Below, piece by piece: positions 18,867-48,476 of a stretch of 64,000 nucleotides of DNA. The notes under the pieces are model-generated. The model did not search any database. It worked only from the letters and a program-made list of their open reading frames with translations, and was not told the origin of the DNA. Made by a program: the position numbers and the translations under genes. This stretch comes from Phyllobates terribilis (taxonomy: Eukaryota). The stretch is from contig NW_027362771.1 of NCBI RefSeq assembly GCF_046119375.1, forward strand, positions 116,374,001 through 116,438,000. Reading direction: 5' to 3'. Positions within the stretch are counted from its first letter, which is position 1. Every line of letters begins with the position of its first letter.

Positions 18867-19973
18867 TCAGGTTGGACGACCGGCGATCGCTGCCTGCAGC
18901 ACTTTACCTAGTCTGGCATCCGCCGAGGAGTAGGTGTGAACCTTATAGAATTTTGTAAAGGTATGCAGAGATGACCAGGTAGCCGCCTTGCAAACCTGCA
19001 AGGCTGAAGCCTGATGGCGAACAGCCCAAAATGCACCCAGCGCCCAGGTGAAATGAGTTCTTACGCCCGAAGGGGGCAATTTGTTCTTTACTTGATAAGC
19101 GTACAAGATCGTTGAGCGAATCCAGCGAGCGATGGTGGATTTAAAAGTAGGTAGACCCTTGCGACAACCTTCAGAGATGACGAACAGGGAGTCAGAACAC
19201 CTGAAAGAAGCATACCTTGAGAGGTAGCAACGCAAAGCTCTAACCAAATCCAGGTTATGAGGGCCTTTTCCAGTGGATATGCAGGATAAGGGAAAAGGGA
19301 AGGCAATACAATGTCCTCATTTATGTGGAAGGCACAGACCACCTTGGGCAAAAAAGAAGGTACTGGCCTAAGAACTACCTTATCCTGATGAGAAACGGAG
19401 AACGACAGGAAAGCTGCCAATTCAGAAACCCTTCTGATGGATGTGATGGCTATCAGGAATGTGACCTTCAAGGAAAGTAGGGACAAAGAAATTTCCTGAA
19501 TTGGTTCGAAAGGCAGGGCCTGAAGAACACCTAACACCAAATTCAGATCCAAAGGATCTACTGGCTGACGATACAATGGAGCTAAGTGAGCAACACCCTG
19601 AAGGAAAGTCTTCATCTGAGGCCGAGCAGCCAGATTACACTGAAACAGGATGGAAAAAGCGGAAACCTGACCCTTGAGCGTACTGAGGGATAAACCAGCA
19701 ACAAGGCCCGCCTGAAGAAAGGCCAGGATGGAAGGACATTAGAGCTGAATGGTTCTCCTCACACCATCGAAAAAAGGCTTTCCAGGTACGGTGATATATA
19801 CGAGAAGAAGTGAGTTTTCTCGCACTGATCATGGTCTGTATGACCTGGGGGGAGAAACCCGCCTCCTTCAGCACCATGGCTTCAATGGCCATACCATTAA
19901 ACTGAGATACCGAGAATTCGGGTGGAAAAGTGGACCCTGAAAGAGCAGATCTGCTTGCTCTGGAAGTCTCCAA
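18867..19973 (-). pseudogene. DIRS tyrosine recombinase (frameshifted)
   Basis: SLKVTFLIAITSIRRVSEL (catalytic R region), FLPKVV..FH, IARWIRSTI..AY, ATWSSLHTFTKFY. Confidence 0.88.
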
Positions 19974-21155
19974 GGCATGTCTGCAAGCAGATTGACCAGT
20001 TCTGAATACCAGACCCTTCTGGGCCAGTCTGGGGCCACCAGTAGAACCGGAACTCCCTCCAGCTTGATCTTCTTGATGACTCTGGGAATCAGCAGGAGGG
20101 GCGGAAAGAGATAAGGAAGGTGAACCATGGGATGTCTAGAGCATCGTAACCGATTGTCAGAGGGTCGCAAGACCTGGCTACGAAGTGAGGAACCTTCCAA
20201 TTCACCCATGACACCATTAGATCGACATCGAGAGTGCTCCATTTTTGACAAATCTGAGCGAACACCTCTGGGTGAAGAGACCACTCACCAGAGGATAGGC
20301 CCAGACGACTGAGGAAGTCTACGGCCCAGTTTTCCACAACAGGGTATGTGAACTGCTGATATTGCTGACACTTGGCGTTCGGCCCAGAGTAGAATCCGCG
20401 AGACTTTAGAGAGAGTGGACTTGCTTCGAGTGCCAGCCTGATGATTTATATAAGCCACAGCCGTGGCATTATTGGACTGGGTCCAGACTGGCTGGCCCGA
20501 AAGAAGGTCCTGCCAATGAAGGAGAGAGAGTTAGATAGCTCTGATTTCCAGCAAGTTGTTGGGAAGAGAAGTCTCTAGGGTATTCCAGCGGCCCTGAACT
20601 GTGGGGTGAAGGAAAACCGCTCCCCATCCTAGAAGGCTGGCGTCCGTCGTGACCACTAACCATCTGAGAGGGAGGAAGGACCTCCCGAGGTGGATGGAGG
20701 AGGATAGGATCCACCAAGTCAAGGATTGTCTGACTCGAGGAGGCAAGAAAATGGGATGATCCAAGGAGGAGGTCCTCTTGTCCCAAGCTGACAGGAGAGC
20801 CAGTTGGAGGGGGCGGGTATGGAACTGGGCAAAGGGAACAGCCTCCATGGCCGCGACCATTTTCCCCAGAACTCACAAGCAGAGTCCCAGAGGGATGGGA
20901 GAAGGACGTCTTAGAGCATGGATCCCCACAACTGAGGGCTGTGATTTTGTCCTCTGGGAGAAGAACCTTGGCCTGGGAGGAGTTGAACATCATGTCCAGG
21001 AAGATCAGAGGCTGAGACGGGATAAGGGAAGACTTGGTCCTGTTCACTATCCAGCCGAGACGGGAGAGAATGTTCAAAGTGATCTGGATGCTCTGGTAGC
21101 AGTCGTGGTAGGACAGCCCCTTGATCAACAGGTCGTCCAAATAGGGAATGATGAC
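19868..21155 (-). pseudogene. DIRS RT C-half, RNase H and methyltransferase-like segments
   Basis: PYLDDLLIK, LGWIVNRTKSSLIPSQ, VVTTDASLLGWGA, NLLEIRAI, DFLSR, VDLM, LLIPRV..VAPDWPRRVWY. Confidence 0.88.
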
Positions 21156-22530
21156 TGTCAGGGATTCACAGCGACAGGGGCGACACCGGGGAGATCACAC
21201 AATATCCCACCGCTGCCACCACTTTGTCAGGGATTCACAGAGACAGGGGCGACACCGGGGAGATCACACAATATCTTACTGTTGCCGTCATGCTGTCACA
21301 GATTTCTTCAGGGATAAGCAGGCACACGATCCCGATTACTCACTACGTAGGTATCGCCAAGCGACCAGTGAGCCTTTGGCGTCACACCTCCGGATTCCAA
21401 CACATGGAATATGCGTATACGGCCCCCATACAGTCACTATCAGCTTCACAATAGCCCAATTATTATTTGCTGCCACCACTGGCCAAGTTTGAAATATAAT
21501 GCAGGCCAGACCGGATGCCTGCGTTCTGGTAGCATATATGGCTTCGGGGGAGGGAACGATTACAGGACAAAAGAAACAGAACTATTAAATTTTATATTTA
21601 ATCCAAAAGGGAGGCAGTGTTTAGGAAAAATATATACAAGGATTTTACAAAGGAGACATTACAATACATAAGCACTTACACAAAATAATGATTAAAGCAG
21701 AAACTTACTATCCGATCGCTGAGCCAATTCAATACAGGTGGATGGGAGACACTCTGCTTGATTAGACTGTTACGGAACAGGATCCGTTGCATATAGTACA
21801 TATATCTCCTGCAATGAATATGGATCAACCTTCAATTGGCTCTTTTATGCCTAAGGGGAGATCTGCCCACACACCCCTGTGGTGACACCATGTGGGCTCG
21901 GGCTTCACCCTTCATGTTTTTATTAAAATAACTAACTTCCGCTATAACATCCATGGTTGCTCACAGAAGCCCAAAAGTGATACCATATTTTCTATTATGA
22001 TATTACGTTCATTTAGAGACCACGCATGGCGTACCTGCGATACGTTATTCTGGTGCTTTTGTGCTACAGCTCCAAGGAGGGGTTCACAACGACAGGAAAA
22101 TATCCCTATCGTTCCCTAGCTGACCCTGTCACTAAAAATATGGGTCCCATCATTATCGGATGTATGGAACTTTAGTTATTCCATATTTTGTTTCGGCTCT
22201 GAAGGGCCTAGAGACTTATTAAACTCTCTTTGAAGTTTCAACAGGTATCTGTAGATTTATCGCAAGCCTGCGTCCAATTGTCCCCTGCCTTTACCAGGGG
22301 AAATCTACTCGCATTTTAAGTAGGTTGGTGGCACCTCTCTTGCCAGCATTTGTTTACAGGGCCTTACTCATGAGTGTGTTAATTGGGTTTTTGTGCTGAG
22401 ATTTACATGGAGACAGCTCTTGTACGGACAAGTGGTCGATTGTTGGCTTTTGTCTTGTGACAAAGGTGGATAAGGGAGGGGTGAGAGGGGCTTCAGGTGA
22501 AGAAAGAATATTTTCAATATTTCCCTGACA
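21156..22530. mobile_element. Solo LTR (1375 bp) inserted in the DIRS RT
   Basis: TGTCAGGGA...TCCCTGACA termini; 5-bp TSD ATGAC (21151-55, 22531-35); no coding capacity. Confidence 0.85.
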
Positions 22531-23623
22531 ATGACAATTCCCTTGGAACGAAGAATGGCCATGACGATTGCCATCACCTTGGTGAATACTCTGGGGGCCG
22601 AGGCTAAGCCGAACAGAAGAGCCATAAACTGGTAACGGTTGCTCTGGGTCGCAAATCGGAGAAACCTTTGATGAGACTCACAAATTGGGATATGGAGGTA
22701 AGCATCCTGAATGTCCATTGGGGAGAGGAACTCCTCGGGTTCCATGGAAGAGATAACAGAGCGGAGGGACTCCATCCTGAATTGAAGGAGCCGCACCCGC
22801 CGGTTCAGGAGCTTGAGGTCCAAGATCAGATGGAGAGAACCGTCCTTCTTTGGGTCCACGGAAAGCTTGGAATAAAAACCCTTGAAGCGCTCTTCTGAAG
22901 GAAAGGGAATGATGACTCCTGTTGACAGAAGAGAATTGATGGCTTGGAAAAAAAACTGAAACGTGAGCCGTTTCCCTTGGAGAACGTGGCAAGAAAAAGT
23001 GATAATGAGGAATGGAGGAAAATTCTATTTTGTAGCCTGTGGAGACTATTTCCCTGACCAAGGCGTCATCAATCGCCGCTAGCCATGCGTCCCGGAAAAG
23101 AAGGAGACGGCCACGCACCCTGAGAGGATTCACAGGTGTGGATGTCCCGTCATGCAGAAGAGAATCTGCTAAACGGGATCCTGAGGTCTTGTTGGGGTGT
23201 CCCTTTCTGCGCCAGGATGGAGCAGGCTTGTATGAAGGCTTCCTTCTTTCTCTTTGGACTGGAGATCGGTCGCGCTGAGGTGGGAACCTGGTAGACGAGA
23301 AGGGATGAAAGGAGCGAAACTGCGGAGTCTGCCCAGGGTTGAACGGACGTTTGGGCTTAGGCTAGGGAAGAGAGGTGCTCTTGCCCCCAGTGGCGTCCAA
23401 AATGAGCTGGTCTAGCTGAGCCCAAAGAGTCAGGAACCCTGAAAGGGGAGACTAAAGGGACTTTTTGGAAGGCGGGTCAGCATTCCAGGCCTTAAGCCAG
23501 AGGATCCTATGTATGGCTATGATGTTGCTGCTGGCCCAAGCAGAACAATTGGAGGCGTCTAGGGACACAGATAAAAGATATTTCCCCGCGTGGACAAGCT
23601 GGTCCGCCATCCCCTCTGGAGGG
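22531..23623 (-). pseudogene. DIRS gag C-terminus and RT N-half
   Basis: ILWLKAWNADPPSKKSL; VRGRLLLFRDAW..GYKIEF; PKKDGS..ILDLKLLN..DIQDAYLHIPI..YQF.AL.FGLASAPRVFTKVM. Confidence 0.88.
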
Positions 23624-24243
23624 TGTAATGCAGCGGCATTACTGCAATGGTCAAGGGTGTGTTTTGGCTGACCATGTACCTCCCCCTCAGGTGACTGATC
23701 ACATGACTGTGACATCAGCTCAGTTCCTATGTGCACTGAAAGATATATAAACCCTGGTACTTTTGAAACAGGTGTGTGAGAGGCGTGAGGCCTGATCCCT
23801 GTGTGTGGGACACCATTAGCCAGGAGAAGCTGGAAGTGAGAGGCGTGAGGCCTGATCCCTGTGTGTGGGACACCATTAGCCTGGAGAGGCTGGAAGAGAG
23901 AGGCCTGGTGAAGCCTTAAAGACCCAGCAAGTTGCAGAACTGAGCTGAGTGAAGCAGCTAAAACCCGACAAAGGTAAAAATGCTGCTTGATGTGGACATT
24001 TATATTGTTACCTAGCTGAAGGCTGTATCTGGAGCCAAGTGGACATATCTGTTACTGCAAAGGCTCTTGGACATTATATGTGTAATATGCCGGTGAGCCA
24101 CTGAGATGGACTATGTTATGTGCAGTTTATGATGTGTAATAAACTGCTGGACTGTGAAATACCGGAAAGACGTTGCATGTGTGCTTTAATTGACCCGGTG
24201 AAGCGAGTGTCCCCCAGCGTGATGAATAACGCTACCGTACAAG

Positions 24244-24262
24244 TGGTTAGAGAATGCGGGCA
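24244..24262 (+). other. Primer binding site, tRNA-Ala(AGC)-like
   Basis: tggttagagaatgcgggca vs TGGTGGAGAATGCGGGCA, the complement of the vertebrate tRNA-Ala 3' end as recalled. Confidence 0.7.
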
Positions 24263-24601
24263 ACGGCAGCCTGGTTGCTAGGGGCAACGGCAGCCTGGTT
24301 GCTAGGGGCAAAGGCACAGGACGACGAGTGTGGATGCAAGCATCTTGCTGTGGCTCGGAGGGGTCACGAAGATTAAAGCATCTTGCTGTAACTCGGCGGG
24401 GTTACGAAAATTGTCGTCGCACCCAAACCTGGTTTGCTGTGGCTCGGCGGGGTCACGAAGATTAAAGCATCTTGCTGTAACTCGGCGGGGTTACGAAAAT
24501 TTTCGTCGCACCCAAACCTGGTTTTGCTGTTGCTCGACGGGGCTAAGAAAATTTTTCCGGGGAGAGCGGTGTGAAGTGTCTAGTGTAAACAGCGTACCGC
24601 G

Positions 24602-26640
24602 ATGGCTGTGAACGGAGTAGCAAATGAGACTGAAGCTATTGAGCGATTAAAGTGTCGGTTAAAATCGCAGCAGGTGTTTGAGAAACGTCTACAGGACATG
24701 GTGCAGGAACGGCAGGAGCTGTTGGCACCGTATAGACTGGCGGCAGTGGACCATTCTGTGAACTCTCCGGGGGCGCCAGTATTGTCCCAGACTGCCTGGG
24801 GAGGTGGTAAGAGATGTTGTGAACTGAGTCCTAAGACTGTTGCGGGTTTTTTTGTTAAAGTACCCCCTTTAGGTGTGGTTGTCCAAAAGGGGATTGAGTC
24901 TAAAAAGGGGGCGGATTCTCAAAAGAGCGTGGAGTATAGAAAACCAAAATTTGTTACTGGTTGTGGGTTGGTACGGCCTAAAAATGACAATTTGACCGTT
25001 GATAACGGGGTAGCTCCACTAGAAAGGGTTGACGTCAAGGTGGGAGGTGACTTGTTGGTCCACGACACCATGGGGAGTGACGCAGACCCCACAACTGACG
25101 GTGACGCTATGAAAGTAGAAAGAGAGTTCAGTCAGGAGGGGCTAGACGAGGGGAGAAAGTCCCCCACTCGTCGACTGTGCAAGGGCCACAAAAAGGTTGC
25201 TCCTGTATTCATTGCTGAAAGTGAAAATAAAGAAAATGTAATGCTGTGTGCCTTTGTTCCAAGTGTGGATCCTCCTTTAGAGGCAGAAGAGAAGGTGACG
25301 TTGCCAGTAGCAACCTCCGGTACAGTACTGAGACAGAAGGATCAGGAACCAACAGCCCTGAAAGAGGAGGTGGCCAGTCATGACCAAGAGCTGGAGCCTA
25401 TCAGGCAGCAGTGTCAGAGTGATGGGCAGCAAAAACTGGAGGAAAGCAACGAGGAAATCAACAAATGGAAGGAGATGTTCCAGAAAATTAAAGAGGACCT
25501 CCGCAGAATCCAAGAGGAGGTTGTTCGGTTGCAGTTTGACAAAGCGATGTCTGAAGATGAGCTATGCGAGATGAAAGATCATTTCTCCCTGGTACAGTTA
25601 GAGCTGATGCAGGAGAAGCAAAGGCTGGATGAGGGTCTACACCAGAGGGATAGGGAGCTATCTGCCTTAAAAGGGGCGCTGCAGGATGAAGTTTCTGGAC
25701 GTGATCAAGACCTAGAACGAACGCGCGAACAATTCAACCGGGAGCTGTGTGAATCCAAGAAGGAGCATGGTGAACTCATGAGGGAGCTGCAGCAATTCCA
25801 GGACCAAGTAAAGCCTCTAATGCAGGAGAAGGAGCGGCTGGTGGACTCTGTACCAGCGAGACCGGGAGCTATCCGCCCTGGAAGAGGCAGAAAAGAGGCA
25901 TGAAAAGTTCAATAGGGAACTGCAACAAACTAAGAGAGACTATGAGGATCTCCTCAAGGTTAAGGAAATACTAAAGGATGATAAGGCGGATGCAGAGCAC
26001 AGGCGTCAAGTGATTGAGACCACTCTGCAGGACACGCGTGATGTAAATGATGATCTCCGCAGAAAGACCCTAGGTCTGGAAGCTGAGGTGAAGGAGCTGC
26101 AGACGTTCTATGATAATCTCCAGAGGGCAGAGTCGTGCCTTAAGAAAAGAATCAGCAAGATGGAAGCTGAGCGGAAAAAGATGAAGGAGTCTATCGGAGA
26201 AGCCACAGACCAGGGCCAGGAGTTGGCCAGTGGAGATGGGAGGTATGAAGCAAATACCTCCTCGAATAAGGCGAGCTCGGATGATTCGGTGGATGTTAGA
26301 GCCGAGATCAATGAGCTCAAGGAGACGCTACAAGCCCATTTGAAGCAAGAGAAGTTTGAGAGACTGGCTGTTGAGAGCCGAGTGGGCGCATTGGAGACAG
26401 AGAGGTCTGAGAGAACTCTACTGTTAAAGGAGCAGTTGAAGCAGGAAGAGCTTCAGAGATGGGCTGCTGAGAGGCGAGTAGCTGAGCTAGAGGAAGAAGT
26501 TTTCGAGCTCAAAAGGTCGCCTGGCAAAGTATCACTCAGTGAACGAGGCCTCCTTGGAGAAGGAAAAGGGCAAACAAGTTGCACTTACTCCTTTATACCA
26601 TGAGAAGGTGGACCTGAGGAGAGCTAAGAGAGTGTTAACA
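24602..26640 (+). pseudogene. Cargo ORF part 1: unknown N-terminus plus cingulin-like coiled-coil rod (frameshifts near 25845 and 26590)
   Basis: TALKEEVASHDQELE, EEINKWKEMFQKIKEDLR, QRDRELSALKGALQDEV, RRQVIETTLQDTRDVNDDLRRKTLGLE resemble recalled cingulin/CGNL1 rod motifs; no introns. Confidence 0.75.
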
Positions 26641-27471
26641 GAAGATAAGTATGAAATGGAAGTGGTCAAGATGAAAATTCTTGAAGTGGTAGCTGTGAGT
26701 CCGCTCAGGTGAAGCATACAGGGTGAAGAAGCTGAAAGTCAGTTGCCCCTGAAACCTGAGCCAGATGATCGTTTGGAGACCACTGGTGAGACAGAAACCT
26801 CTCGTTACAAGTGCCTCATAGATGTACCCGAGGATTTGAGAGAAGAATGCACCAGTGAGTCCATGCATTAAGAGTTTAAGAAGGCTGTGGGAGCCCGTAA
26901 GGTGTACTTGACCTCAGAAGCTAAACAGCTGCTGGTCCTGTCCACAACCGAAGTCACAGTGAAGAGGGTGGCTATCCTAAGTGACATGCACTGGCGATGT
27001 ATTCACACGAAGCGGTTTCTCCAGTTGAAGACGGACCAAGCAGTTAGACAACTGGAGCTTATGAGCAAAGCTCAAAGTCTGCATGAAGAGGTCATCCGGG
27101 TGCCTGAGGCTCTGGTAACAAAGCTCATTGGGAGAAATGGCCGAGCCATGCAGATGATGGTAAAGAAGTCTGGTGTGATGAGAGTAAGCAGTCCACGTGA
27201 TCAACAGGACTGGATACCAGATGAAGACGGCATGGTGTCATTCTCCGCTGTAGGAACGGAAGAAAGTCTTGCATATATATGCATGCTGATGGAATACCGA
27301 GTGACCCACCTGCGAGAGGTAGAACAGTTGAATCTCGCTAGACTGCGAGTGGAAAGACAGAATCGCCTGAGCGGCAGAAGGTGGCAGCCGTCTAGAAATT
27401 GTGAGACCAGACAGAGAAAGGGCCCCCTAAATAACAGAACAGCTACAGCTGAAGTTAGGGACCTTTCATGA
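26640..27471 (+). pseudogene. Cargo ORF part 2: FXR1/FMR1-family fragment (KH0, single KH, following helix), with in-frame stops near 26710 and 26868
   Basis: KCLIDVPEDLREEC..H*EFKKAVGA..LSTTEVTVKRVAILSDMH..VPEALVTKLIGRNG..KKSGV..EDGMV..VGTEES..EY.V.HLREVEQL; closest to FXR1 as recalled; no introns. Confidence 0.85.
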
Positions 27472-27846
27472 TGTCCTGAGAGTAGTGGGCATGGGTTGAG
27501 AGGTAGTGAGACCTCCGGTAACTCAGGTTTGAGTGGCCCATACAAACGACCCAATAGAGTACGGGACAGTACGGAGTCTAACCGGACCTTAGATACTAGG
27601 GCGTGTGAGTTACACTGCTGTATTGACCGCTGGGAGCGGTGGAGGTGCGACAAGGTTACGACCTGGAAATGTGACTTGACAAAGTCAGTGACATTGACAA
27701 ATGGTAGGTCCCTAAGGAACAGGCTAATGTCGATGACTAATGTTCCAGGGGCTGAGCAGCGCAATTGTCAAGTACATGGTCTCGGTGTGAACTGTGGGTT
27801 ATAATGTGATTGTGTATATTATGTGTTCAACCCTACAAGTTTGAAC

Positions 27847-27860
27847 AGAGGGGGGGGATA
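27847..27860 (+). other. Polypurine tract
   Basis: agaggggggggata immediately before the 3' LTR. Confidence 0.8.
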
Positions 27861-28476
27861 TGTAATGCAGCGGCATTACTGTAATGGTCCAGGGTGTGTT
27901 TTGGCTGACCATGTACTTCCCCCTCAGGTGACTGATCACATGACTGTGACATCAGCTCAGGTCCTATGTGCACTGAAAGATATATAAACCCTGGTAGTTT
28001 TGAAACAGGTGTGTGAGAGGCGTGAGGCCTGATCCCTGTGTGTGGGACACCATTAGCCTGGAGAAGCTGGAAGTGAGAGGCGTGAGGCCTGATCCCTGTG
28101 TGTGGGACACCATGAGCCTGGAGAGGCTGGAAGAGAGAGGCCTGGTGAAGCCTTAAAGCCCCAGCAAGTGGCAGAACCGAGCTGAGTGAAGCAGCTAAAA
28201 CCCGACAAAGGTAAAAACGCTGCTTGATGTGGACATTTATATTGTTACCTTGCTGAAGGCTGTATCTGGAGCCAAGTGGACATATCTGTTACTGCAAAGG
28301 CTCTTGGACATTATATATGTAATATGCCGGTGAGCCACTGAGATGGATTGGTTATGTGCAGTTTATGATGTGTAATAAACTGCTGGACTGTGAAATACCG
28401 TAAAGACGTTGCATGTCTGCTTTAATTGACCCGGTGAAGCGAGTGTCCCCAGCGTGATGAATAGCGCTACCTTACA

Positions 28477-29283
28477 AGGGGCTAAGGAAGTAAGACCCTG
28501 ACAGAGGAGTTTATCCCAAGCGGAAATAGACTTGGCCACCCATGTGGAAGCGAAGAGAGGGCAGAAGGAAGCACCAGCGGTCTCAAATACTGACTTGGCA
28601 AGGGATTCCACCTGTCAGTCTGTGGTGTCCTTAAGGGAAGAACCATCTGGCAGTGATAAAATGGTCTTAGAGGAGAGACACGGATACCGGTGGGTCGACG
28701 GATGGGGACTCTGACCACCGGCTGACTAGCTCTGAACTGAAGGGATAAAGGATGTCTCGTTGTCTCTTCCCAGAAAAACGCTTGTCAGGATAACCCCAGT
28801 GCTTAGAGTGGACTCCTTCGAATTCCTTATGACTGGAAAACGTCCGAGGGGGACGCTTGTTTTTTTTTGAAGGAGACGGCATGGACCGGAGGGGAGCATT
28901 CGTCCTCCTTGATGTTGAGCATCTGGTTGACAGCTGTGATGAGACTGTCAACCATATTCTGCAGCTTGGAATTTTGGTCCTTATCATAGTCTGACTCGGA
29001 GTCTGACTCAGGAACGAATCCGGGTGACCTCTCAGGAGAGGACAGACCCGAAGGCAACTTAGAAGACGTGGATGGTGATAGAGATCTAAAAGAGGAAGTC
29101 CCCGATTTGTTCCTGTAAGCACGGCAGCTGGGTGCCTGCGAATCTTGCTGAGGAACGCTCAGAGCGGTGGAAGCAACCGTTAGAACGGGTAAACGTTCCA
29201 TAACCTGGACCAAGGATTGTGAAACTTTGGTGAGGTCTGATACGGACTGAGAAAGGGCAACAGCCCACTCTGGAGGAGGGGGT
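28477..29283 (-). pseudogene. DIRS gag middle segment
   Basis: RWSESPSVDPPV, typical of vertebrate DIRS ORF1; bounded by the TSDs of the two LTR insertions. Confidence 0.7.
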
Positions 29284-29571
29284 TGTAATGCACACGCCCG
29301 AACTGACTGGCGTGTGCGTGTTTATGTAGTGATTCCACTGTGCCATGAACCGGAGAGTGCCTGGAGGGGCGTAACTAAGTATCTGCCCGATCCGACCAAG
29401 GTCGTACGACGGCATACGACGGCAGTGCACCAGGGAGGAACCGAGCAGAGGAACCAGGGTCTACTCCAGGTCAGACACTCAGACACGGCTGTTGACCCAC
29501 ACCGGGGAATACAGGAACAGGCAGACTAGAGCACAGGCTGGGTAGGGTCCAGTACAGACTGGGAGACAAAT

Positions 29572-30118
29572 TCGAAACCGCAGACGCGGTAGACAGAGCT
29601 GAGCAAAGCGAAAACCGCAGACGCGGCGGACAGAGCTGAGCAAAGCGAAAACCGCAGACGCGGCGGACAGAGCAGAGCAAAGCGAAAACCGCAGACGCGG
29701 CGGACAGAGCAGAGCAAAGCGAAAACCGCAGACGCGGCGGACAGAGCAGAGCAAAGCGAAAACCGCAGACGCGGCGGACAGAGCAGAGCAAAGCGAAAAC
29801 CGCAGACGCGGCGGACAGAGCAGAGCAAAGCGAAAACCGCAGACGCGGCGGACAGAGCAGAGCAAAGCGAAAACCGCAGACGCGGCGGACAGAGCAGAGC
29901 AAAGCGAAAACCGCAGACGCGGCGGACAGAGCAGAGCAAAGCGAAAACCGCAGACGCGGCGGACAGAGCAGAGCAAAGCGAAAACCGCAGACGCGGCGGA
30001 CAGAGCAGAGCAAAGCGAAAACCGCAGACGCGGCGGACAGAGCAGAGCAAAGCGAAAACCGCAGACGCAGCGGACAGAGCAGAGCAAAGCGAAAACCGCA
30101 GACGCGGCGGACAGAGCT
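29572..30118. repeat. 37-bp tandem array inside the 3' LTR (~15 copies)
   Basis: Unit caaagcgaaaaccgcagacgcggcggacagagcagag. Confidence 0.95.
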
Positions 30119-30759
30119 CTGTTCACACGGAACAGACTAGAAGGGAAAGGCAGAACCAGATACCCACAGGGTACTTGCAGAGAAGTAGCGAGTGGACCAC
30201 AAACTCACAAACGGAAGTACAGTGACAACTAGCAGGAGTTAGGTACGAGTTCAGACTCTGCAGAAAAAGGAAGGGAACGGACATAGAGGCAAAACAGGTA
30301 AAGGATAGGAGAGAGTTCAGACTGGAACTGAGTGTACGGAGGAGACCGACACTGCAGCGGAATACAGGAGCGGGTCTGGGAATACGGCCCCAGAAGGCGG
30401 GAGGAACAGGCTAGGAGCGTGTTCAGACAGGACAGACAAGATACAGGAACGGATCTAGGTAATCGGCCCCTAGAAGGCGGGAGGAACAGGCTAGGAGCGT
30501 CTTCAGACAGGCCTAGAAATACAGCCTCCAGGATAGGCAGACAAGAGAACACAGACAGGACTCAGTTCAGACACGGGAACTGATACCGCAAGGCAGGAGA
30601 CAAAGACAGGACTCAGTTCAGACAGGGGAACTGATACCGCAAGGCAGGAGACAGACAGGACTCAGTTCAGACACGGGAACTGATACCGCAAGGCAGGTAA
30701 CAGACAGGACCTGGCATGTCAGAGACAAAAGCCAACTGACAGGGCAAGATGCTCCGGCA

Positions 30760-33111
30760 TCAGTTAATTGGGGCAGCTGGTTTAAATACCAGGTGACAGA
30801 CAGCAATAGGCTGAGGACGCACAAGGGGTGTGCCTGCAGCAGGTACAAAAAGCAGGAAGTGATCGGGCGCCGCCCTTAAGCAGCAGACACAGAAGCAAAC
30901 AGACAGCATGGAGGGAAGCCAGAGAAACACCCTGGACTGGAGATCAAGTGCGCGCTCTTGCACAGTGGGAGATGGACCACTATGCAAGGACGCCGCCAGG
31001 TATGTTACAGTACCCCCCCCCCCCTTACGCCCCCTCTTCTTCAGGCCTGCCAGAATGTTCCGCAGGGAATTCGAGGGCCAATCCTTTACTTCAAGGAGAT
31101 CACTTCCACTGTCCACTGGAGAAACTGGTCTCATCTGGTTAGCTAGGATGCTACCTCCTATCCAGCCATCCTCAGCAACAGACGAAACGGGTGGAGTACC
31201 AGGAACAGCACACAGGGAAGTCTCTCTCCACTTATTATCAGGTAGCACCCCAGAGGGTTCAGGAGACAACTGGAAGTCCTCCGCCGGGTTGGAGGAGTGC
31301 AGAGACTCGGGGGTAACCTCTGCTTCGGGGTACATCTTGTCAAACTCACAGGATGAAATGGGCGAGGTATCAGGTACAAGGTGTAGAAAAGTCCCTGTTA
31401 CCTTGTTATCTGGTGGCACCCAGGAGGATTCAGAAAACAACTGGGGGTCCTCCGCCGGGTCGGAATAGTGCAGAGACTCGGGGGTAACCTCTGCTTCGGA
31501 GTACACTAGGTCGGACTCGCTGGATGAAGCGGGCGAGGTATCAGGTACCGAATATAGAAGAGTACCTGTCCATTCGTTATCAGGTAGCACCCCGAAGGGT
31601 TCAGGAGACAACTGGAGGTCCTCCGCATGGTCAGAGGGGTGTAGAGACTCGGGGATAACCTCTGCTTCGAGGTACATCTTGTCAAATTCACAGGAAGAAA
31701 TAGACGGGTTATCAGGTACAGGGTGAGAAAAAGTCACTGTCTCTTTGTTATCTGGTGGTACCCCGGAGGAGTCAGGAAACAACTGGAGGTCCTCTGCCGG
31801 GTCAGAAGAGTGCAGAGGCTCGGGGAAAACATCTGCTTCAGAGTACACTAGGTCGGACTCACTGGACGAAGCAAGCGAGGTATCAGATCCAGGATATAGG
31901 AAAGTCTCTGTCCATTCACCACCAGGTGGCACCCCGAAGGGTTCTGGAGACAACTGGAGGTCCTCCGCCTGGTCAGAGGGGTGTAGAGACTCATGGGTAA
32001 CCTCTGCTTCAGAGTACACTAGGTCAGACTCACTGGACGAAGCAAGCGAGGTATCAGATCCAGGATATAGGAAAGTCTCTGTCCATTCACCACCAGGTGG
32101 CACCCCGAAGGGTTCTAGAGACAACTGGAGGTCCTCCGCCTGGTCGGAGGGGTGTAGAGACTCATGGGTAACCTCTGCTTCAGAGTACACTAGGTTGGAC
32201 TCACTGGATGAAGCAGCCGAGGTATCAGGTACCGAGTATAGGAAAGTCTCTATCCATTCGCTACCAGGTAGCACCCCGAAGGGTTCAGGAGACAACTGGA
32301 GATCCTCCGCCTGATCGGAGGGGTGTAGAGACTCAGGGGTAACCTCTGCTTCGGAGAACACTAGGTCGGACTCACTGGACGAAGCGGGCGAGGTATCAGG
32401 TGCAGGGTATACGGAAGTCTCTCTCCAATTGTCCTCAAGTGGTATCCCGGGGGATTCAGGAGGCAACAGGGGGTCCTCCGGTGTGAATTCTGGGTGGGCA
32501 GCAGTCTCTTCGGGCAGGAGAACTGGTGCACTACCCACGCACATTACCCGTTGGGGCTTCTCCGGGATACAGGGAGATGAAGCTTCAGTAGGGACTTCAA
32601 GGTTGGGGTCAGGAGGTCTCAGGGAGGACAGACCCTGGTGTGACGGCTTGCCTCTACGTCTAGCACGTCTGGACTGCCTCTTGAGGTTGGGAGAAGTATT
32701 CCGGAGAGTGTAGTCACCCTGTGAGGATTCTGGGTGGGCAGTAGTCTCATTGGGCTGGAGGACTATTGCGCTACCCACACACATTACCCATCGGGGCTGC
32801 TCCGGGATACTGGGAAGTGAAGCTTCAGCAGGAGCCTCCGGGTTAGGATCATCGAAGACCATTAGAAAGGCCACCAGGAAGGCCATTATGTCCAGGACGA
32901 TAGGATCCTGTGTTTCCCATAGGGGGTTGATCCATTCCAAGGCATCACCCGCTAGGTTAGACATAATGAATCCCACCTTAACCCGATCGGTGGGAAAACA
33001 AAGAGGGTAGAACTTGAAGTGTAGCATGCATTGCTCCACAAATGCACGACTCTGTCTTGGATCCCCATAGTAACGTGGCGGATCCGCAGGAACGAGAGCT
33101 GATAGATCCAT
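30760..33111 (-). CDS. Uninterrupted 783-aa ORF: Ty3/Gypsy Gag N-terminal domain (PEG10/RTL/LDOC1-like) plus ~8 acidic 57-aa repeats; reads into the 3' LTR
   Basis: PPRYYGDPRQSRAFVEQCMLHF..FPTDRVKVGFIMSNLAGDALEW..FL..F..VFDDP; 171-bp repeat unit (31841 vs 32012). Confidence 0.8.
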   Translation of the reverse strand: MDLSALVPADPPRYYGDPRQSRAFVEQCMLHFKFYPLCFPTDRVKVGFIMSNLAGDALEWINPLWETQDPIVLDIMAFLVAFLMVFDDPNPEAPAEASLPSIPEQPRWVMCVGSAIVLQPNETTAHPESSQGDYTLRNTSPNLKRQSRRARRRGKPSHQGLSSLRPPDPNLEVPTEASSPCIPEKPQRVMCVGSAPVLLPEETAAHPEFTPEDPLLPPESPGIPLEDNWRETSVYPAPDTSPASSSESDLVFSEAEVTPESLHPSDQAEDLQLSPEPFGVLPGSEWIETFLYSVPDTSAASSSESNLVYSEAEVTHESLHPSDQAEDLQLSLEPFGVPPGGEWTETFLYPGSDTSLASSSESDLVYSEAEVTHESLHPSDQAEDLQLSPEPFGVPPGGEWTETFLYPGSDTSLASSSESDLVYSEADVFPEPLHSSDPAEDLQLFPDSSGVPPDNKETVTFSHPVPDNPSISSCEFDKMYLEAEVIPESLHPSDHAEDLQLSPEPFGVLPDNEWTGTLLYSVPDTSPASSSESDLVYSEAEVTPESLHYSDPAEDPQLFSESSWVPPDNKVTGTFLHLVPDTSPISSCEFDKMYPEAEVTPESLHSSNPAEDFQLSPEPSGVLPDNKWRETSLCAVPGTPPVSSVAEDGWIGGSILANQMRPVSPVDSGSDLLEVKDWPSNSLRNILAGLKKRGRKGGGGTVTYLAASLHSGPSPTVQERALDLQSRVFLWLPSMLSVCFCVCCLRAAPDHFLLFVPAAGTPLVRPQPIAVCHLVFKPAAPIN

Positions 33112-33539
33112 CTGGACGGGTGCGTAATTCGCCTGGAACTCAGCTAGAGAAAAAAAAATAAATTTTATTTATTTTTAATGCACATATTCGCTGGAAAAAG
33201 TCTCAGAGAGCGAAGGCCGTGGGGCTCAACGGGAACCATGGCCTGAGCATGCTGTAATGCACACGCCCGAACTGACTGGCGTGTGCGTGTTTATGTAGTG
33301 ATTCCACTGTGCCATGAACCGGAGAGTGCCTGGAGGGGCGTAACTAAGTATCTGCCCGATCCGACCAAGGTCGCACGACGGCATACGACGCCAGTGCACC
33401 AGGGAGGAACCGAGCAGAGGAACCAGGGTCTACTCCAGGTCAGACTCCGGACACGGCTGTTGACCCACACCGGGGAATACAGGAACAGGCAGACTAGAGC
33501 GCAGGCTGGGTAGGGTCCAGTACAGACTGGGAGACAAAT

Positions 33540-34118
33540 TCGAAACCGCAGACGCGGCAGACAGAGCTGAGCAAAGCGAAAACCGCAGACGCGGCGGACA
33601 GAGCTGAGCAAAGCGAAAACCGCAGACGCGGCGGACAGAGCTGAGCAAAGCGAAAACCGCAGACGCGGCGGACAGAGCAGAGCAAAGCGAAAACCGCAGA
33701 CGCGGCGGACAGAGCAGAGCAAAGCGAAAACCGCAGACGCGGCGGACAGAGCAGAGCAAAGCGAAAACCGCAGACGCGGCGGACAGAGCAGAGCAAAGCG
33801 AAAACCGCAGACGCGGCGGACAGAGCAGAGCAAAGCGAAAACCGCAGACGCGGCGGACAGAGCAGAGCAAAGCGAAAACCGCAGACGCGGCGGACAGAGC
33901 AGAGCAAAGACCGCAGACGCGGCGGACAGAGCAGAGCAAAGCGAAAACCGCAGACGCGGCGGACAGAGCAGAGCAAAGCGAAAACCGCAGACGCGGCGGA
34001 CAGAGCAGAGCAAAGCGAAAACCGCAGACGCGGCGGACAGAGCAGAGCAAAGCGAAAACCGCAGACGCGGCGGACAGAGCAGAGCAAAGCGAAAACCGCA
34101 GACGCGGCGGACAGAGCT
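33540..34118. repeat. 37-bp tandem array inside the 5' LTR (~15-16 copies, one with a deletion)
   Basis: Same unit as 29572-30118; shortened unit near 33905. Confidence 0.95.
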
Positions 34119-36483
34119 CTGTTCACACGGAACAGACTAGAAGGGAAAGGCAGAACCAGATACCCACAGGGTACTTGCAGAGAAGTAGCGAGTGGACCAC
34201 AAACTCACAGACGGAAGTACAGTGACAACGAGCAGGAGTTAGGTACGAGTTCAGACTCTGCAGAAAAAGGAAGGGAACGGACATAGAGGCAAAACAGGTA
34301 AAGGATAGGAGAGAGTTCAGACTGGAACTGAGTGTACGGAGGAGACCGACACTGCAGCGGAATACAGGAGCGGATCTAGGTAATCGGCCCCTAGAAGGCG
34401 GGAGGAACAGGCTAGGAGCGTGTTCAGACAGGCCTAGAAATACAGCCTCCAGGATAGGCAGACAAGAGAACACAGACAGGACTCAGTTCAGACACGGGAA
34501 CTGATACCGCAAGGCAGGAGACATAGACAGGACTCAGTTCAGACACGGGAACTGATACCGCAAGGCAGGTAACATAGACAGGACCTGGCATGTCAGAGAC
34601 AAAAGCCAACTGACAGGGCAAGATGCTCCGGCATCAGTTAATTGGGGCAGCTGGTTTAAATACCAGGTGACAGACAGCAATAGGCTGAGGACGCACAAGG
34701 GGTGTGCCTGCAGCAGGTACAAAAAGCAGGAAGTGATCGGGCGCCGCCCTTAAGCAGCAGACACAGAAGCAAACAGACAGCATGGAGGGAAGCCAGAGAA
34801 ACACCCTGGACTGGAGATCAAGTGCGCGCTCTTGCACAGTGGGAGATGGACCACTATGCAAGGACGCCGCCAGGTATGTTACAGGGGTGTACTCTCGTCC
34901 CAGGTGGCAGGGGGTTCCAGTGAGGAAAACATGCTGGAAGGGCTGCAGGTTGGATAGATTGCCAAGGCCTGGCCTGTGGGCCACTTTTTATTACAGAGGG
35001 TGCAGGCGTAGTAAGTTATATTGGGAAAGGGACGGGAGGGAGGCTCCCAGAGCCTGTCCATATGTATGTGTTTGAGTGGCTGTGATCTAGCAGTGTCTGT
35101 AATATTTCTGAGGAGAGCTAATACTGTCAGGTATAGCCTGGCCAGAGACTACCTGGTCAGATGGAGGGTCCTGTCCGATGTGGAGTTTCACCAGCAGAAG
35201 TAACTGCGGCCAGCAGGCAGCTGTGGTCCAGTAGAGGAGATATGATGTCTGGAAGCTGATATGGCACTCAAGGAGAGGGCGGTACCGTGCAAAAAACGCG
35301 TGTATAACAGGGCGTTCCCGTGCGGAGTGCGGGAAAGACAAGGGAACCGCCCCCCCTCCCTGACATAGTGGTCCGGAGCATGCGCGGGAACAAACCCCGC
35401 GCTGAAGCGTTTTTTCAAAATGGAGGGGGCATGGTTACCGCCTTCTGCCAGCAACGTAAGAAGGTGGTAGTGGCGTGGGAGGTAAGGAGGGCGGGCCGAG
35501 TGATGCTGGAGCAGGGAGAGTGTCGGAATAAGCCAAACGTCATGTGAGGGGCGTGTCCGGGAGTAGGCCGAAGTCGGGGCCTGGATTTACTGCCGCTGGG
35601 GCCTGAAAGAACAGCCGAGAATGAAGAGCTCTAGGGAGGGGAGGTAGGTCGGTGACACTGCCACTGCGTTGGTGGAGAGGGGAGATACAGTACCTGATGT
35701 CTTCTGCATGTCCGGTCCTCTTCTCCACATCTTGGGACTGCATCAGGAACCCCCGGGCTAGAGAGGGGGTCACTGGTGGGCATCCATCCCGGTCCTGGAT
35801 GGTGTAGAAGATAGGAACACAAGAGAAGGGGGAAGATCACTACTAGTGACCCTGTCTTCCTCCCGGCCCACTTCGAGGAGGGGGCTGGGGATGGGATCAG
35901 AGGCAGGACCGATTCGCTCCAGTCCTCCTGAACACCATAAGGTGACAGGGAATGGGTCCTGCCTCGCAGACCGAGAGTGGGCGACACCACATTGCTCTCT
36001 CGGTCACACCTGTGCGAGAAAACAGGGTGAGACATTACACCCGGTTACCCTGGGAAGGAAAAATCTGAAAGACAGGGAAAAGATTATTAAAAAAAGAACA
36101 ACAGGGTACCTGAAAAGGAAAAAAGACGGATCTGGGATCAGATGCAGGTCCGCCTCCTACTGACACTAAGCTTAAACTGATGAGCTTAGTGCCAGTCATT
36201 GGGTGTATACTGCTGAGGACCAAATTCTTTTTTCTAGCCTAGTGTCAGCCTCCTAGCGAAGCAGAATACACCTATGTTTACCTGTGTCCCCCCCAATGAA
36301 GCGATAAAGAAAATCACAGCATACAGAAATTTCTTCTGTATGTCGAGTGAGACTCTCCTATTTAAGTCTGTGTGTGCAAAGAAAAAAGTCATACAGATAA
36401 CATGTAATAGACTCTAAAACCTATTTCATGTCCTGTTACTCTCGGTTTAAATTCTTCACCTATGTGTTCACCAATAGCGCTTA

Positions 36484-44498: not shown

Positions 44499-45952
44499 CC
44501 TCTAAGAAACACTAAAAGAAATCAAGATTAAAAATGTGGTACTCAGTAAGGGTCATTTTTTTCAGACCAAGCTGAGGGAAAAAATTATGGAACCACTCAA
44601 TTCTGAGGAAAAAAATATGGAATCATGACAAACAAACACACAAAAGAACATCAATCTGGCTCCAACTTTCTCTGATTGCTGTTGCCAGATCAGCTTTGCA
44701 GGTTGGAGCCTTGTCATGGACCATTTTCTTCAACTTCCACCAAAGATTTTCAATTGGATTGCGATCCGGACTATTTGCAGGCCATGACATTGACCTTATG
44801 TGTCTTCTTTCAAGGAATGTTTTCACAGTTTTTGCTCTATGGCTTGATGCATTATCATCTTGAAAAATGATGTCATCATCCCCAAACATCCTTTCAATTG
44901 ATGGGATAACTGTCCAAAATACCAATGTAAACTTGGGCATTTATTGAAGATGTAATGACAGCCATCTCCCCAGTGCCTTTACCTGACATGCAGCCCCATA
45001 TCATCAATGACTGTGGAAATTTGCATGTTCTCTTCATGCAGTCATCTTTATAAATCTCATTGGAACGGCACCAAACAAAAGTTCCAGCATCATCACCTTG
45101 CCCAATGCAGATTCGCGATTCATCACTGAATATGATTTTCATCCAGTCATCCACAGTCCACGATTGCTTTTCCTTAGCCCATTGTAACCTTGTTTTTTTC
45201 TGTTTAGGTGTTAATGATGGATTATGTTTAGCTTTTCTGTATGTAAATCCCATTTCCTTTAGGCGGTTTGTTAGTTTGGGCACAGACATTGACTCCAGTT
45301 TTCTCCCATTTATTCCTCATTTGTTTTGTTGCGCATTTCCTGTGGAATATGGAGACATATTGCTTTAAGTTTCCGGTCTTGACACTTTTATGTCTTCCTT
45401 GGTCTACCAGTATGTTCGCCTTTAACAACCTTCCCATGTTGTTTGTATTTGGTCCAGATTTTAGACACAGCTGACTGTGAACAACCAGCATCTTTTGCAA
45501 CATAGTGTGATTCACCTTCTTTTAAGAGTTTGATAATCCTTTCCTTTGTTTCAATTGACATCTCTCGTGTTGGAGCCATGATTCATGTTAGTGCACTTGG
45601 TACAACAGCTCTCCAAGGTGTGATCACTCCTTTTTAGATGCAGGCTAACGAGCAGATCTAATTTGATGCAGGTGTTAGTTTTGGAAAATTTACAGGGTGA
45701 TTCCATAATTTTTTCCTCAGAATTGAGAGATTCCATAATTTTTTCCCACTGCTTAGTTTGAAAAAAATTACCCTTACTGAGTACCACATTTTTAATCTGG
45801 ATTTCTTTTAGTGTTTCTTAAAGCCATAAAGTTGCCATTTGAAATTACTTTAGTTTTGTGCCATGTCTGTGATCTGCTTTTTTTCAACAACATTAAACAA
45901 CTGAATGAACATCCTCCGAGCCCGGTGATTCCATAATATTTGCCAGGGGTTG
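44499..45952 (-). mobile_element. Tc1-like transposon of the same family as 17123-18628; 3' TIR truncated
   Basis: TIR ..tttgccaggggttg|ta at 45952; transposase MAPTREMSIETKERII.., FSDESRICIG, SPDRNPIENLW. Confidence 0.9.
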
Positions 45953-46094: not shown

Positions 46095-48476
46095 CAGTGG
46101 TGGAAATAAGCATTATAATTAAGATAAATTTATTTCCATTTTGCAGTGAGAAATAAGTATTTGATCCCTCTGGCAAACAACACTTTAGGCTGAGTTCACA
46201 CGATGCGTTTTTAATGCGTTTCCGCGGCGTTTTTGCAGTTGCGGAAACGCATTAAAAACGCATGGTAGAAGGGCAGCAATGTTCCCCAATTGAAATCCGC
46301 ATGTGCTGTGCCCATGATGCGGATTTTTCCGCAGCGTAAACGCTGCGCTCAAAAATCCGCAGCATGTCAATTAATTTTGCGTAAACGCGGCGTTTTCGCC
46401 GCCATTGACTTGCATTAGAACGCGCCAATTCCGCAAGACTGCATTTGTACTTGCGCTATTGGCGCGTTCTAATGTGCGGATGGTACCCGAGTGTGGAGGA
46501 GAGGAGACTCTCCTCCACACCCAGGTACCATGAAAAAATCTGTAAAAAAAGAATAAAATAAAAAATAAATGTATACTTACCTTCTGTCGGCCCGCGCAGC
46601 GCTCCTGCTTGATTCCCGGCACTTTGCAGTGAGTTGAAGGACCAGCGCTGACGTCAGAGTCATGTGACGGGTCACGTGACGCTGACGTCGGCAGGTCTTT
46701 CAATTCAAAGTTGCCGGCGAGGGAGAACTGAGTGTAAAGCAGGACATCGGGGGCCATCAGAGGGTAAAGTATACATTTATTTTTTATTTTTACCATTCTC
46801 TCGGGTCACACTATATAAATCCATGCTGGTTGCATGGATTTATATAGTGTGACCTAGTTGTCAAGCACTTTCCAGGTGATGCTAAAATCGCCTGGAAAGC
46901 GCTTGTCAATCCGCATGCGGAAACGCATGTGGAAACGCATGTGAATCCGCAGGAAAAACGCATGCACAATCTGCATGCGTTTTTTCTGCCAGGGAGATGC
47001 AGAAATTATGCAGAAATTTTCTGCTTCATTTCTGCATCGTGTGCACATACCCTAATACTTGGTGAGAAATAAGTATTTGATCCCCTACAAACCATTATGA
47101 GTTCTGGCTCCTACAGACCAGTTAGACGCTCCTAATCAACTCGTTACCTGCATTAAAGACAGCTGTCTTACATAGTCACCTGTATAAAAGACTCCACAGT
47201 CCACAGACTCAATTAATCAGTCAGACTCTAACCTCTACAACATGGGCAAGACCAAAGAGCTTTCTAAGGATGTCAGGGACAAGATCAAAGAGCTTCACAA
47301 AGCTGGAATGGGCTACAAAACCATAAGTAAGACGCTGGGTGAGAAGGAGACATCTGTTGGTGCAATAGTAAGAAAATGGAAGAAATACAAAATGGCTGTC
47401 AATCGACATCGATCTGGGGCACCATGCAAAATCTCACCTTGTGGGGTATCCTTGATCGTGAGGAAGGTGAGAGATCAGCCTAAAACTACACGGGGGGAAC
47501 TTGTTAATGATCTCAAGGCAGCTGGGACCACAGTCACCAAGAAAACCATTGGTAACACATTACGCCTTAATTGTTTAAAATCCTGCAGTGCCCGCAAGGA
47601 CCCCCTGCTTAAGAAGGCACATGTGCAGGCCCATCTGGAGGTTGCCAATGAACACCTGGATGATTCTGTGAGTTATTGGGAGAAGGTGCTGTGGTCAGAT
47701 GAGACAAAAATTTAGCTCTTTGACATTAACTCAACTCGCCGTGTTTGGAGGAAGAAGGATGAGCACAACCCTAAGAACATCGTCCCAATCGTGAAGCATG
47801 GTGGGGCAAACATTATAATTTGGGGGTGCTTTTCTGCAAAGGGGACATGACGACTGCACCGTACTGAAGGGAAGATGGATGGGGTCATGTATCGTGAGAT
47901 TTTGGCCAACAATCTCCTTCCCTCAGTAAGAGCATTGAAGATGGGTCGTGGCTGGGTCTTCAGCAAGACAATGACCCAAAACATACAGCCAAGGCAACAA
48001 AGAAGTGGCTCAAGAAAAACAACAGTAAGGTCATGGAGTGGCCTAGCGATTCTCCAGACCTTAATCCCATAGAAAACTTATGGAGGGAGTTGAATCTCTG
48101 AGTGGCCAAGCGACAGCCTCAGAATCTTAATGATTTAGAGATGATCTGCAAAGAGGAGTGGACCAAAATTCCTCCTGACATGTGCGCAAACCTCATCATC
48201 AACTACAAAAAACGTCTGACTGCTTGTGCTTGCCAACCAGGGTTTTGCCACCAAGTATTAAGTGTTATTTGCCAGAGGGATCAAATACTTATTTCTCACT
48301 GCAAAATGCAAATAAATTTATCTAATTTATACAATGTGATTTTCTTGATTTTTTGGGGGATATTCTATCACTCAATGTTAAAATTAACCTACCCTTAAAG
48401 TTATAGACTGTTCATGTCTTTGTCAGTGGTCAAACTTACAAAAACAGCAAGGGATCCAATACTTATTTCCCCACAG
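46095..48476 (+). mobile_element. IR/DR Tc1-like transposon (defective), interrupted by a MITE
   Basis: Direct repeats aaataagtatttgatccc in both IRs; transposase [23 protein letters not shown] (47242-47715) plus frameshifted DDE remainder. Confidence 0.85.
46188..47052. mobile_element. Harbinger-type non-autonomous element
   Basis: ggctgagttcacacgatgc / gcatcgtgtgcacataccc termini; TWA flanks. Confidence 0.7.

Follow-up and report, generated by a model that had tools for sequence, protein, structure and literature searches.

Why would a long terminal repeat (LTR) retrotransposon without enzymes of its own carry a long open reading frame (ORF) of host-gene origin, and what has kept that frame open? 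The question is raised by the element at positions 23624-28476 of the 64,000-nucleotide stretch of Phyllobates terribilis DNA analysed here (hereafter the window; assembly GCF_046119375.1, contig NW_027362771.1, positions 116,374,001 to 116,438,000 of the forward strand). We found that the element is a member of a dispersed, non-autonomous LTR retrotransposon family whose ORF, by comparison with host loci, is a mosaic of spliced host mRNAs from at least four donors: FXR1, a NASP-like gene, LONP1 and cingulin (CGN). Lineages that propagated were selected for one unbroken frame and for amino-acid constraint in the FXR1-derived module alone, and once inserted, individual copies drift into neutral decay. 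Host fragments caught up in transposons tend to be regarded as decaying passengers; the confinement of selection to the FXR1 part suggests instead that a stolen host domain helps to copy the element's own RNA.

The window copy lies on the + strand between a 618-bp 5' LTR with TG...CA ends (23624-24241) and a 616-bp 3' LTR (27861-28476), which differ by 19 substitutions over 616 aligned columns (3.08%). A preliminary description, made from the letters alone, had estimated the pair at ~617 bp and 96-97% identity; its target-site duplication (TSD), primer-binding site (PBS) and polypurine tract (PPT) were all recovered as well. The TSD, AGGG, lies on both sides (23620-23623 and 28477-28480, no strand), the PBS (TGGTTAGAGAATGCGGGC, 24244-24261) is present family-wide, and the PPT occupies 27847-27858. 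The PBS is putatively tRNA-Ala-like; the 164 fetched loci contained no tRNA gene. The PBS and PPT presumably resemble those of the Ty3/Gypsy (Gmr1-like) lineage, the element having no pol for a reverse transcriptase (RT) or integrase phylogeny. A leader with tandem duplications of 24 bp and 89 bp, a candidate packaging region, spans 24262-24601. The ORF starts with the ATG at 24602, and its first ~240 codons (24602-25325) keep the frame with unconstrained residues. They are followed by a cingulin rod piece (25326-26229), a second coiled-coil-like segment (26230-26597), a LONP1 piece (26598-26729), the FXR1-derived module (26791-27400) and a C-terminal tail (27401-27804) that holds a further FXR1 exon piece near 27565-27630. 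The family ORF is a single frame of ~1,000-1,130 codons ending with the stop at 27802-27804, 43 nt 5' of the PPT. Compared with a sister copy, the window copy has frameshifts near 25850 (cingulin piece) and 26517 (second coil), and stops at 26710 (LONP1 piece), 26869 (FXR1 module) and 27469 (tail). The reading path proposed earlier, 24602-27471, was thus right in its two frameshifts and two in-frame stops and wrong in its end, where 27469-27471 is a third premature stop and the family frame continues to 27804. Also as described, no gag, RT or integrase family was matched by the four internal ORF pieces scanned against Pfam.

A DNA search of the same genome returned 4,757 first-look candidates, of which 40 were scored and 38 loci fetched; all 39 sequences, the window included, were colinear with one ORF. 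An exact LTR-end plus PBS pattern, blind to cargo, matched the genome 469 times and its reversed control 0 times. All 30 of the pattern matches examined open with the family leader; 27 follow the family over the 1.5 kb read and 3 are interrupted. Because the exact pattern catches just 15 of 53 PBS-bearing copies found by other routes, a crude extrapolation gives ~1,600 copies. Both LTRs were recoverable in 35 of 92 loci, with pair divergences of 1.2-7.1% (group medians 2.9-3.9%); a 4-bp TSD is exact in 24 of these 35 and within one mismatch in 28, and copies lie on many contigs. The copy tree is largely star-like (terminal length 1.44 versus internal 0.24), and subfamilies that differ in cargo, deletions and LTRs have each spread. 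The junctions (at least 469), the dispersed loci, the 4-bp TSDs and the lack of gag and pol bear out the earlier suggestion of a multi-copy family mobilised in trans, and show that this is not a single copy. Its further claim of young LTRs and continuing mobilisation found no backing, as none of the 35 LTR pairs is closer than 1.2%. Before counting we removed L023, L062, L063 and L108 as near-duplicates of other loci (L108 was retained in the LTR-pair analysis) and L068 and L099 as not being element copies; L020, with no end anchor, was removed from the codon tables only.

Some loci were unusual in other ways. One old copy, with LTRs ~93% alike and the same flank, recurs on several contigs (L061, L062, L063 and L108, on C9, C122 and C306), with similar matches on C637, C886 and C1116; it was amplified within a larger segmental or tandem repeat, not via transposition. 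Locus L013 (C1:49314000-49323999) has a tandem LTR-internal-LTR-internal-LTR arrangement whose units are 99.8% identical.

To separate decay from inheritance, variants among 90 copies were split into private ones, mostly post-insertion, and shared ones, inherited via propagating lineages, with expectations taken from the mutation spectrum. Private variants gave a nonsynonymous-to-synonymous rate ratio (dN/dS) of 1.00 (0.99-1.00) and 123 stops against 117 expected, from which neutral decay after insertion follows; the window copy is one of these dead copies. Among variants present in at least 5 of the 90 copies there were 9 stops versus 24.1 expected (p = 4e-4), and 3 versus 14.7 outside CpG. 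Deletions of at least 9 nt in the CGN part were in frame in 11 of 11 distinct shared events versus 14 of 25 private ones (Fisher p = 0.015), with a microhomology null for in-frame deletions of 0.49-0.67 at 3-6 nt. For this count the copies were aligned to the host, using the 50 copies with the whole slot, and 15 binned shared rows reduced to the 11 events. It supersedes a first count on the multiple alignment, which was blurred by the repeated CGN exon (in frame: shared 7/10, single 29/56). An overall pairwise NG86 dN/dS of 0.62 was likewise rejected as a mutation-spectrum artefact, the corrected private value being 0.99-1.00.

The idea that the cargo is fully neutral, its open frames left over from recent capture, is barely credible on these data and largely refuted. 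Private dN/dS near 1 fits it, as does the bias towards in-frame deletions that periodic microhomology creates (null up to 0.67-0.81); against it, inherited stops are depleted and private ones are not, and the FXR1 part has reached a synonymous divergence (Ks) of ~0.9-1.3 from the host without a fixed stop.

Constraint on residues was regional. Shared dN/dS was 0.62 in the 206 codons of the FXR1 module (p = 1e-4) versus 0.96 in the other 834, and neither 500 random 206-codon draws nor the 11 contiguous windows outside FXR1 gave any value below 0.78. By segment it was 0.90-1.17 for the N-terminal ~240 codons and 0.80-0.96 for CGN. Between subfamilies, nonsynonymous differences occupied 5 of 167 FXR1 columns versus 61 of 588 elsewhere (p = 0.002), synonymous ones 5 of 167 and 21 of 588, with no stops; CGN dN/dS between subfamilies was 1.56, and up to ~40% of the rod is deleted in successful subfamilies. 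Relative to the host gene, the FXR1 part has Ka/Ks ~0.3 over Ks ~0.9-1.3; should half of this Ks belong to the host, the element branch would have a ratio of no more than ~0.7. The dN/dS below 1 that the preliminary description had suggested looking for is therefore found in the FXR1 module; elsewhere it is not (0.96), and the frame is kept. With private variants neutral and inherited ones selected, the data carry an internal control, which shows that the spread of the element involved selection for its frame and for a single RNA-binding module of host origin.

The main rival to a role for the module is selection on the frame only. Long 3' untranslated regions and premature stops expose mRNAs to decay, and a translated frame that stops no more than ~45 nt short of the PPT would shield unspliced RNA from nonsense-mediated decay; the protein would be junk, and the FXR1 constraint would reflect avoidance of harmful misfolding or an earlier phase. 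This explanation accounts well for dN/dS of 0.95-0.98 over 834 of the 1,040 codons in which stops and frameshifts are nevertheless purged, for an ORF that ends beside the PPT, and for the swapping in of CGN without loss of spread. It predicts no regional constraint, however, and the FXR1 module is constrained in shared variants, between subfamilies and against the host. We consider it unlikely as the whole explanation, yet a serious contender, and the two effects may act together.

What, then, was retained of FXR1? The identification made from the sequence held up: in the window the region matches Pfam KH_9 at E = 6.6e-13, and the named matches among the 120 listed for this part are FXR1 or unassigned Agenet-domain proteins. 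The capture joins adjacent host exons without introns, giving KH0 plus the first coiled coil (CC1), then KH2 plus the second (CC2), together with a piece of a later exon. KH0 matches PF17904 at E = 1e-25 and, in a model, superposes on FMRP KH0 with a root-mean-square deviation of ~1.1. KH1 was removed in register, leaving one KH domain with its GxxG loop (27130 in the window) in place of the tandem KH1-KH2; among 81 readable copies, 76 retain an intact loop. The module is closest to hyloid-frog FXR1 (50-52% identity). A protein tree, which had no FMR1 or FXR2 rows, did not place the capture with support, so that the assignment to FXR1 among its paralogues rests on protein matches and shared residues and not on the tree. 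Modelled with an alignment of host FXR1, the module forms KH0, a long helix, KH and a second long helix (predicted local distance difference test score, pLDDT, 82) and matches FMRP KH structures; the model shows compatibility with an FXR-type fold, not function. The element thus shares KH0, CC1, KH2 with GxxG and CC2 with FXR1/FMR1 proteins, and differs from them in having no Tudor domains, no KH1 and little of the RGG box, and in being fused behind 600-800 foreign residues; its ORF is not a member of the FXR family.

The other captures have a different history. In a sister copy, the coil finds frog cingulin as its top match (E = 2e-130, 70% over 356 aa), and no CGNL1 or myosin name occurs among the 120 matches listed for this query, which upholds the proposed cingulin origin over a generic coil or CGNL1. 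The captured piece (host aa ~554-951) derives from the host locus on C6, seven of whose exons it joins with introns precisely absent, and in the window it is shortened by in-frame deletions; at that locus 431 of 431 tested residues agree with P. terribilis cingulin. DNA identity to the host is 78-93% in the window and 91-96% in L052, and 91-99% in two sister copies. The large divergence from the host genes that had been described therefore holds for FXR1 only and not for cingulin. Nor was the internal duplication made by the element: the QRDRELSAL repeat is native to host cingulin isoform X1, where it lies in two 216-nt exons.

Copies without CGN surfaced through a search with host LONP1, and in its place carry a cassette of ~290 nt. 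A search with this cassette gave 11 matches, all scored, namely 10 element copies, none with CGN, and a large acidic exon of a host gene whose adjoining exon matches NASP (E = 6e-21). The cassette aligns to this acidic exon with a score of 90, the maximum of 20 codon shuffles being 61. NASP is the likely donor, and not a certain one, because the cassette is of low complexity. At the slot edges, host CGN and the CGN-less form share AGGAAGAG (8 nt) and TGCCAC (6 nt), and CGN-bearing copies switch exactly there; these microhomologies indicate that cingulin replaced the NASP-like cassette in frame by template switching. The family preserves both sides of one template switch, so that the order and fate of the captures can be followed directly. 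Since 19 of 20 PBS-sampled copies carry CGN and none the cassette, with 10 CGN-less copies in the genome-wide cassette search, the CGN capture predates the main expansion; it postdates LONP1 and FXR1.

The prevalence of CGN might favour the view taken in the preliminary description, in which the cingulin-FXR1 fusion is the functional unit and the rod oligomerises the RNA-binding part: CGN-bearing copies dominate, and the capture came before the main expansion. The residues of the rod drift, however, in shared variants as well as between subfamilies, successful subfamilies have lost much of it, and ten copies do without it. A need for the rod as an oligomerisation module is not supported, and we regard the fusion version as highly improbable. 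Because CGN residues drift and constraint is confined to FXR1, cingulin is a replaceable in-frame spacer, and the upstream segments would need only to stay open.

Between the second coil and FXR1 we found a donor overlooked before. The LONP1 piece (43 codons; host aa ~457-501) has dendrobatid LONP1 as its best match (E = 5.5e-5) and joins two host exons 41 kb apart exactly at their splice sites. A second Lon-protease locus, L068 (C14:12675087-12675356 and 12693318-12693485), shows 52-63% identity to LONP1 and is perhaps LONP2. For the N-terminal ~240 codons, which had been called of unknown origin, Pfam, ESM Atlas and 1.84 billion representatives yielded no source save two P. terribilis models; in the same protein searches the second coil matched element sequences only, two of them P. 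terribilis models. Neither segment matched the NASP, FXR1 or CGN loci above shuffles. Four older forms (L092, L093, L055 and L123) have ~40 extra N-terminal codons before the usual start, with a Q-rich helix, and these are possibly a gag relic; Pfam gave no support for this.

All captured pieces are in sense orientation and in frame with their parental proteins. Host-to-element Ks, computed with local-identity filters, is 0.15-0.19 for CGN, 0.18-0.31 for LONP1, 0.84-0.89 for KH0 and 1.1-1.3 for KH2-CC2, the FXR1 values being near saturation. As Ks is lowest in CGN and highest in FXR1, the captures are of very different ages, with CGN the youngest. Capture of mRNA by an LTR element, as the preliminary description proposed, agrees with the precise absence of introns and the microhomology at the CGN junctions; its picture of two mRNAs fused long ago gives way to at least four donors acquired at separate times.

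We propose the following mechanism. RNA of the non-autonomous element would be copied by the Gag, RT and integrase of a helper element, and during reverse transcription it repeatedly switched template onto co-packaged host mRNAs, taking up FXR1 first, NASP and LONP1 next, and finally cingulin in the NASP-like slot. Frog oocytes contain maternal transcripts of NASP, cingulin and FXR1. The ORF would be translated, and its C-terminal module (KH0, CC1, KH2 with GxxG, CC2) could bind, during its synthesis, the mRNA that encodes it, and could pair through CC1/CC2 with host FXR1/FMR1. Element RNA may thereby enter stable germline messenger ribonucleoprotein (mRNP) granules and meet helper particles, with its stability or access raised. 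As the element's enzymes come from elsewhere, any gain from the protein must go mainly to the encoding RNA, or it would be invisible to selection. FXR1 CC1 and CC2 pair and nucleate a cytoplasmic mRNP network (PMC10635158), and Gypsy RNA is abundant in Oophaga ova (PMC6278860). We rate at slightly better than even the reading in which a module derived from FXR1 was translated and aided its own RNA, probably via host FXR granules. The fuller version, in which the element swapped its own coding capacity for a stolen FXR1 RNP-assembly module that stands in, in cis, for a factor of RNA sorting or packaging, while an in-frame 'cassette slot' upstream keeps taking samples of germline mRNAs (a NASP-like one, later cingulin), is plausible but falls somewhat short of even. 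If true, it would describe a selfish, serially exon-shuffling gene that hijacks the host FXR granule network. The family offers a testable case of selection on a cis-acting protein in a non-autonomous LTR element, and it points to a part for FXR granules in the cycle of germline retrotransposons.

Several observations weigh against this proposal. The two N-terminal Tudor/Agenet domains are absent, only a remnant of the RGG box aligns, and KH1 is lost, although the integrity of KH1/KH2 is needed for FXR1 network assembly (PMC10635158). Identity to host FXR1 is just ~50%, and folded as a single sequence without the host-FXR1 alignment the module is uninformative (pLDDT 43). Constraint on FXR1 is moderate (~0.6), shared stops in this part are not depleted (15 versus 16.9 expected), recurrent CpG changes probably contributing, and the CGN part has three small frameshifts that are shared, by 2, 4 and 2 copies. 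The full ORF is intact in 0 of the 92 loci examined, even the least broken copies having a stop or two within ~1,125 codons; the one intact frame, a 998-aa P. terribilis database model (P0039), comes from a locus outside the 92. No helper with the same LTR end and PBS, the autonomous partner sought from the outset, was found among the 30 of 469 pattern matches, none of which starts gag right after the leader. Near host CGN and FXR1 we did observe near-complete Gypsy-type gag/pol elements (L074, L087, L088 and L090), with frames of 650-1,130 codons and RT and zinc-finger motifs. Finally, contigs from four sequencing runs cover 30 of 30 element bins and some join host CGN exons; these runs are not on record as RNA, give no transcript strand, level, source or protein, and were not used as evidence.

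The anatomy of the module also admits a counter-defence in trans, in which a truncated FXR1 protein acts as a dominant negative on host FXR1/FMR1 and weakens FXR-linked small-RNA silencing in the germline, aiding the family and its helper. Pairing coils kept while Tudor, KH1 and most of RGG are lost is what a poison subunit would look like, and dFmr1 acts in the Drosophila gonadal piRNA pathway (PMC5454977). Such a diffusible benefit would be shared with ORF-broken copies, however, so that lineage-wise purging of stops is unexpected, and it is seen; the RNA-contact GxxG loop is kept, and the literature yielded no such FXR1 role in frogs. We judge this account rather improbable. A shade less probable still is co-option by the host, by which a useful chimeric host gene arose from a single fixed locus or a small number of them, a course also proposed for maize Bs1, and the dispersed copies are passive retrocopies that inherit its constraint. 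The annotated intact model P0039 and the largely star-like copy tree speak for it; several subfamilies with different cargo, deletions and LTRs have spread, each of which would need its own open-frame source, and no such protein from other frogs is among the protein matches listed.

We compared the family with known systems. Maize Bs1 (Elrouby and Bureau 2001, 2010; reviewed in PMC13317346) is an LTR element in which pieces of three host genes make up one chimeric ORF, and it is reported as transcribed and translated. The likeness lies in several host genes in one ORF (here CGN, LONP1 and FXR1, with NASP-like in the older form). The frog family differs in being from a vertebrate, in having at least four donors and hundreds to ~1,600 copies, in the survival of its pre-capture form, and in selection that was measured on lineages that propagate and is limited to a single RNA-binding module, and it is known here from DNA. 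LTR-mediated animal retrocopies are described by Tan et al. 2016 (PMC5131818) as intronless, sense, in frame, with microsimilarity at switch points, some multi-gene and some re-retroposed non-autonomously; they are young, most exist once or in few copies, and loss-of-function changes affect 14 of 21 older ones. By every feature testable the element belongs to this class: exons joined without introns (seven for CGN, two for LONP1, adjacent ones for FXR1), microsimilarity, and sense, in-frame insertion, the microsimilarity resting on the CGN junctions as pre-capture forms for LONP1, FXR1 and NASP were not found. It differs in serial captures over Ks of 0.15 to more than 1, in the one frame kept open, and in family size. 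With the non-autonomous LTR elements LARD/TRIM, MaLR and ETn it shares LTRs, PBS, PPT, a 4-bp TSD, the lack of pol and movement in trans; those elements are non-coding or gag-derived, unlike the one long selected ORF of host exons found here. A LARD has a large internal region without coding capacity, and the element, with a selected ORF of ~1,000-1,130 codons, is not one.

No description of the family was found in the literature searched, which lay outside subscription journals, Repbase and Dfam (either of the latter two may list it), and the draft-genome paper for P. terribilis (PMC12208295) contains no passage about retrocopies or chimeras. Among the protein matches listed, relatives of the element came from P. 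terribilis alone; since repeats of this kind are frequently masked, other species may still have them. Within this scope the family is previously undescribed; its novelty lies in its size, in the survival of the states before and after a capture, and in the selection that can be measured on a single RNA-binding module taken from the host. Three element copies (P0253, P0254 and P0039) are annotated as host genes in public gene sets; in poison frogs, such 'cingulin-like' or 'uncharacterized' models can distort the mapping of reads to CGN, LONP1 and FXR1.

The remainder of the window holds other repeats. The element sits in an older, degenerate minus-strand retroelement (18900-23620 and 28481-29320), presumably DIRS-like and itself interrupted by further insertions; it matches RVT_1 (E = 2.8e-7) at 22368-23021 and has another, weak RT piece at 20472-21194. 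Also on the minus strand, ~29284-34884, is an LTR-like element without pol whose terminal repeats of ~1.3-1.7 kb (~92% alike) hold 37-bp tandem arrays; its 802-codon stop-free frame (30763-33168) begins with a gag-like DUF4939 match (E = 2.5e-6), after which come acidic repeats of 171 bp (57 aa). The window thus has two non-autonomous elements with long open frames. A 316-codon minus-strand frame at 755-1702 with DUF4062 (E = 7.4e-6) is probably a host-gene exon. A Tc1-type transposase fragment lies at 47188-47712 (Pfam HTH_SB, HTH_Tnp_Tc3_2), and similar frames were seen by eye near 44897-45316 and 52098-52529.

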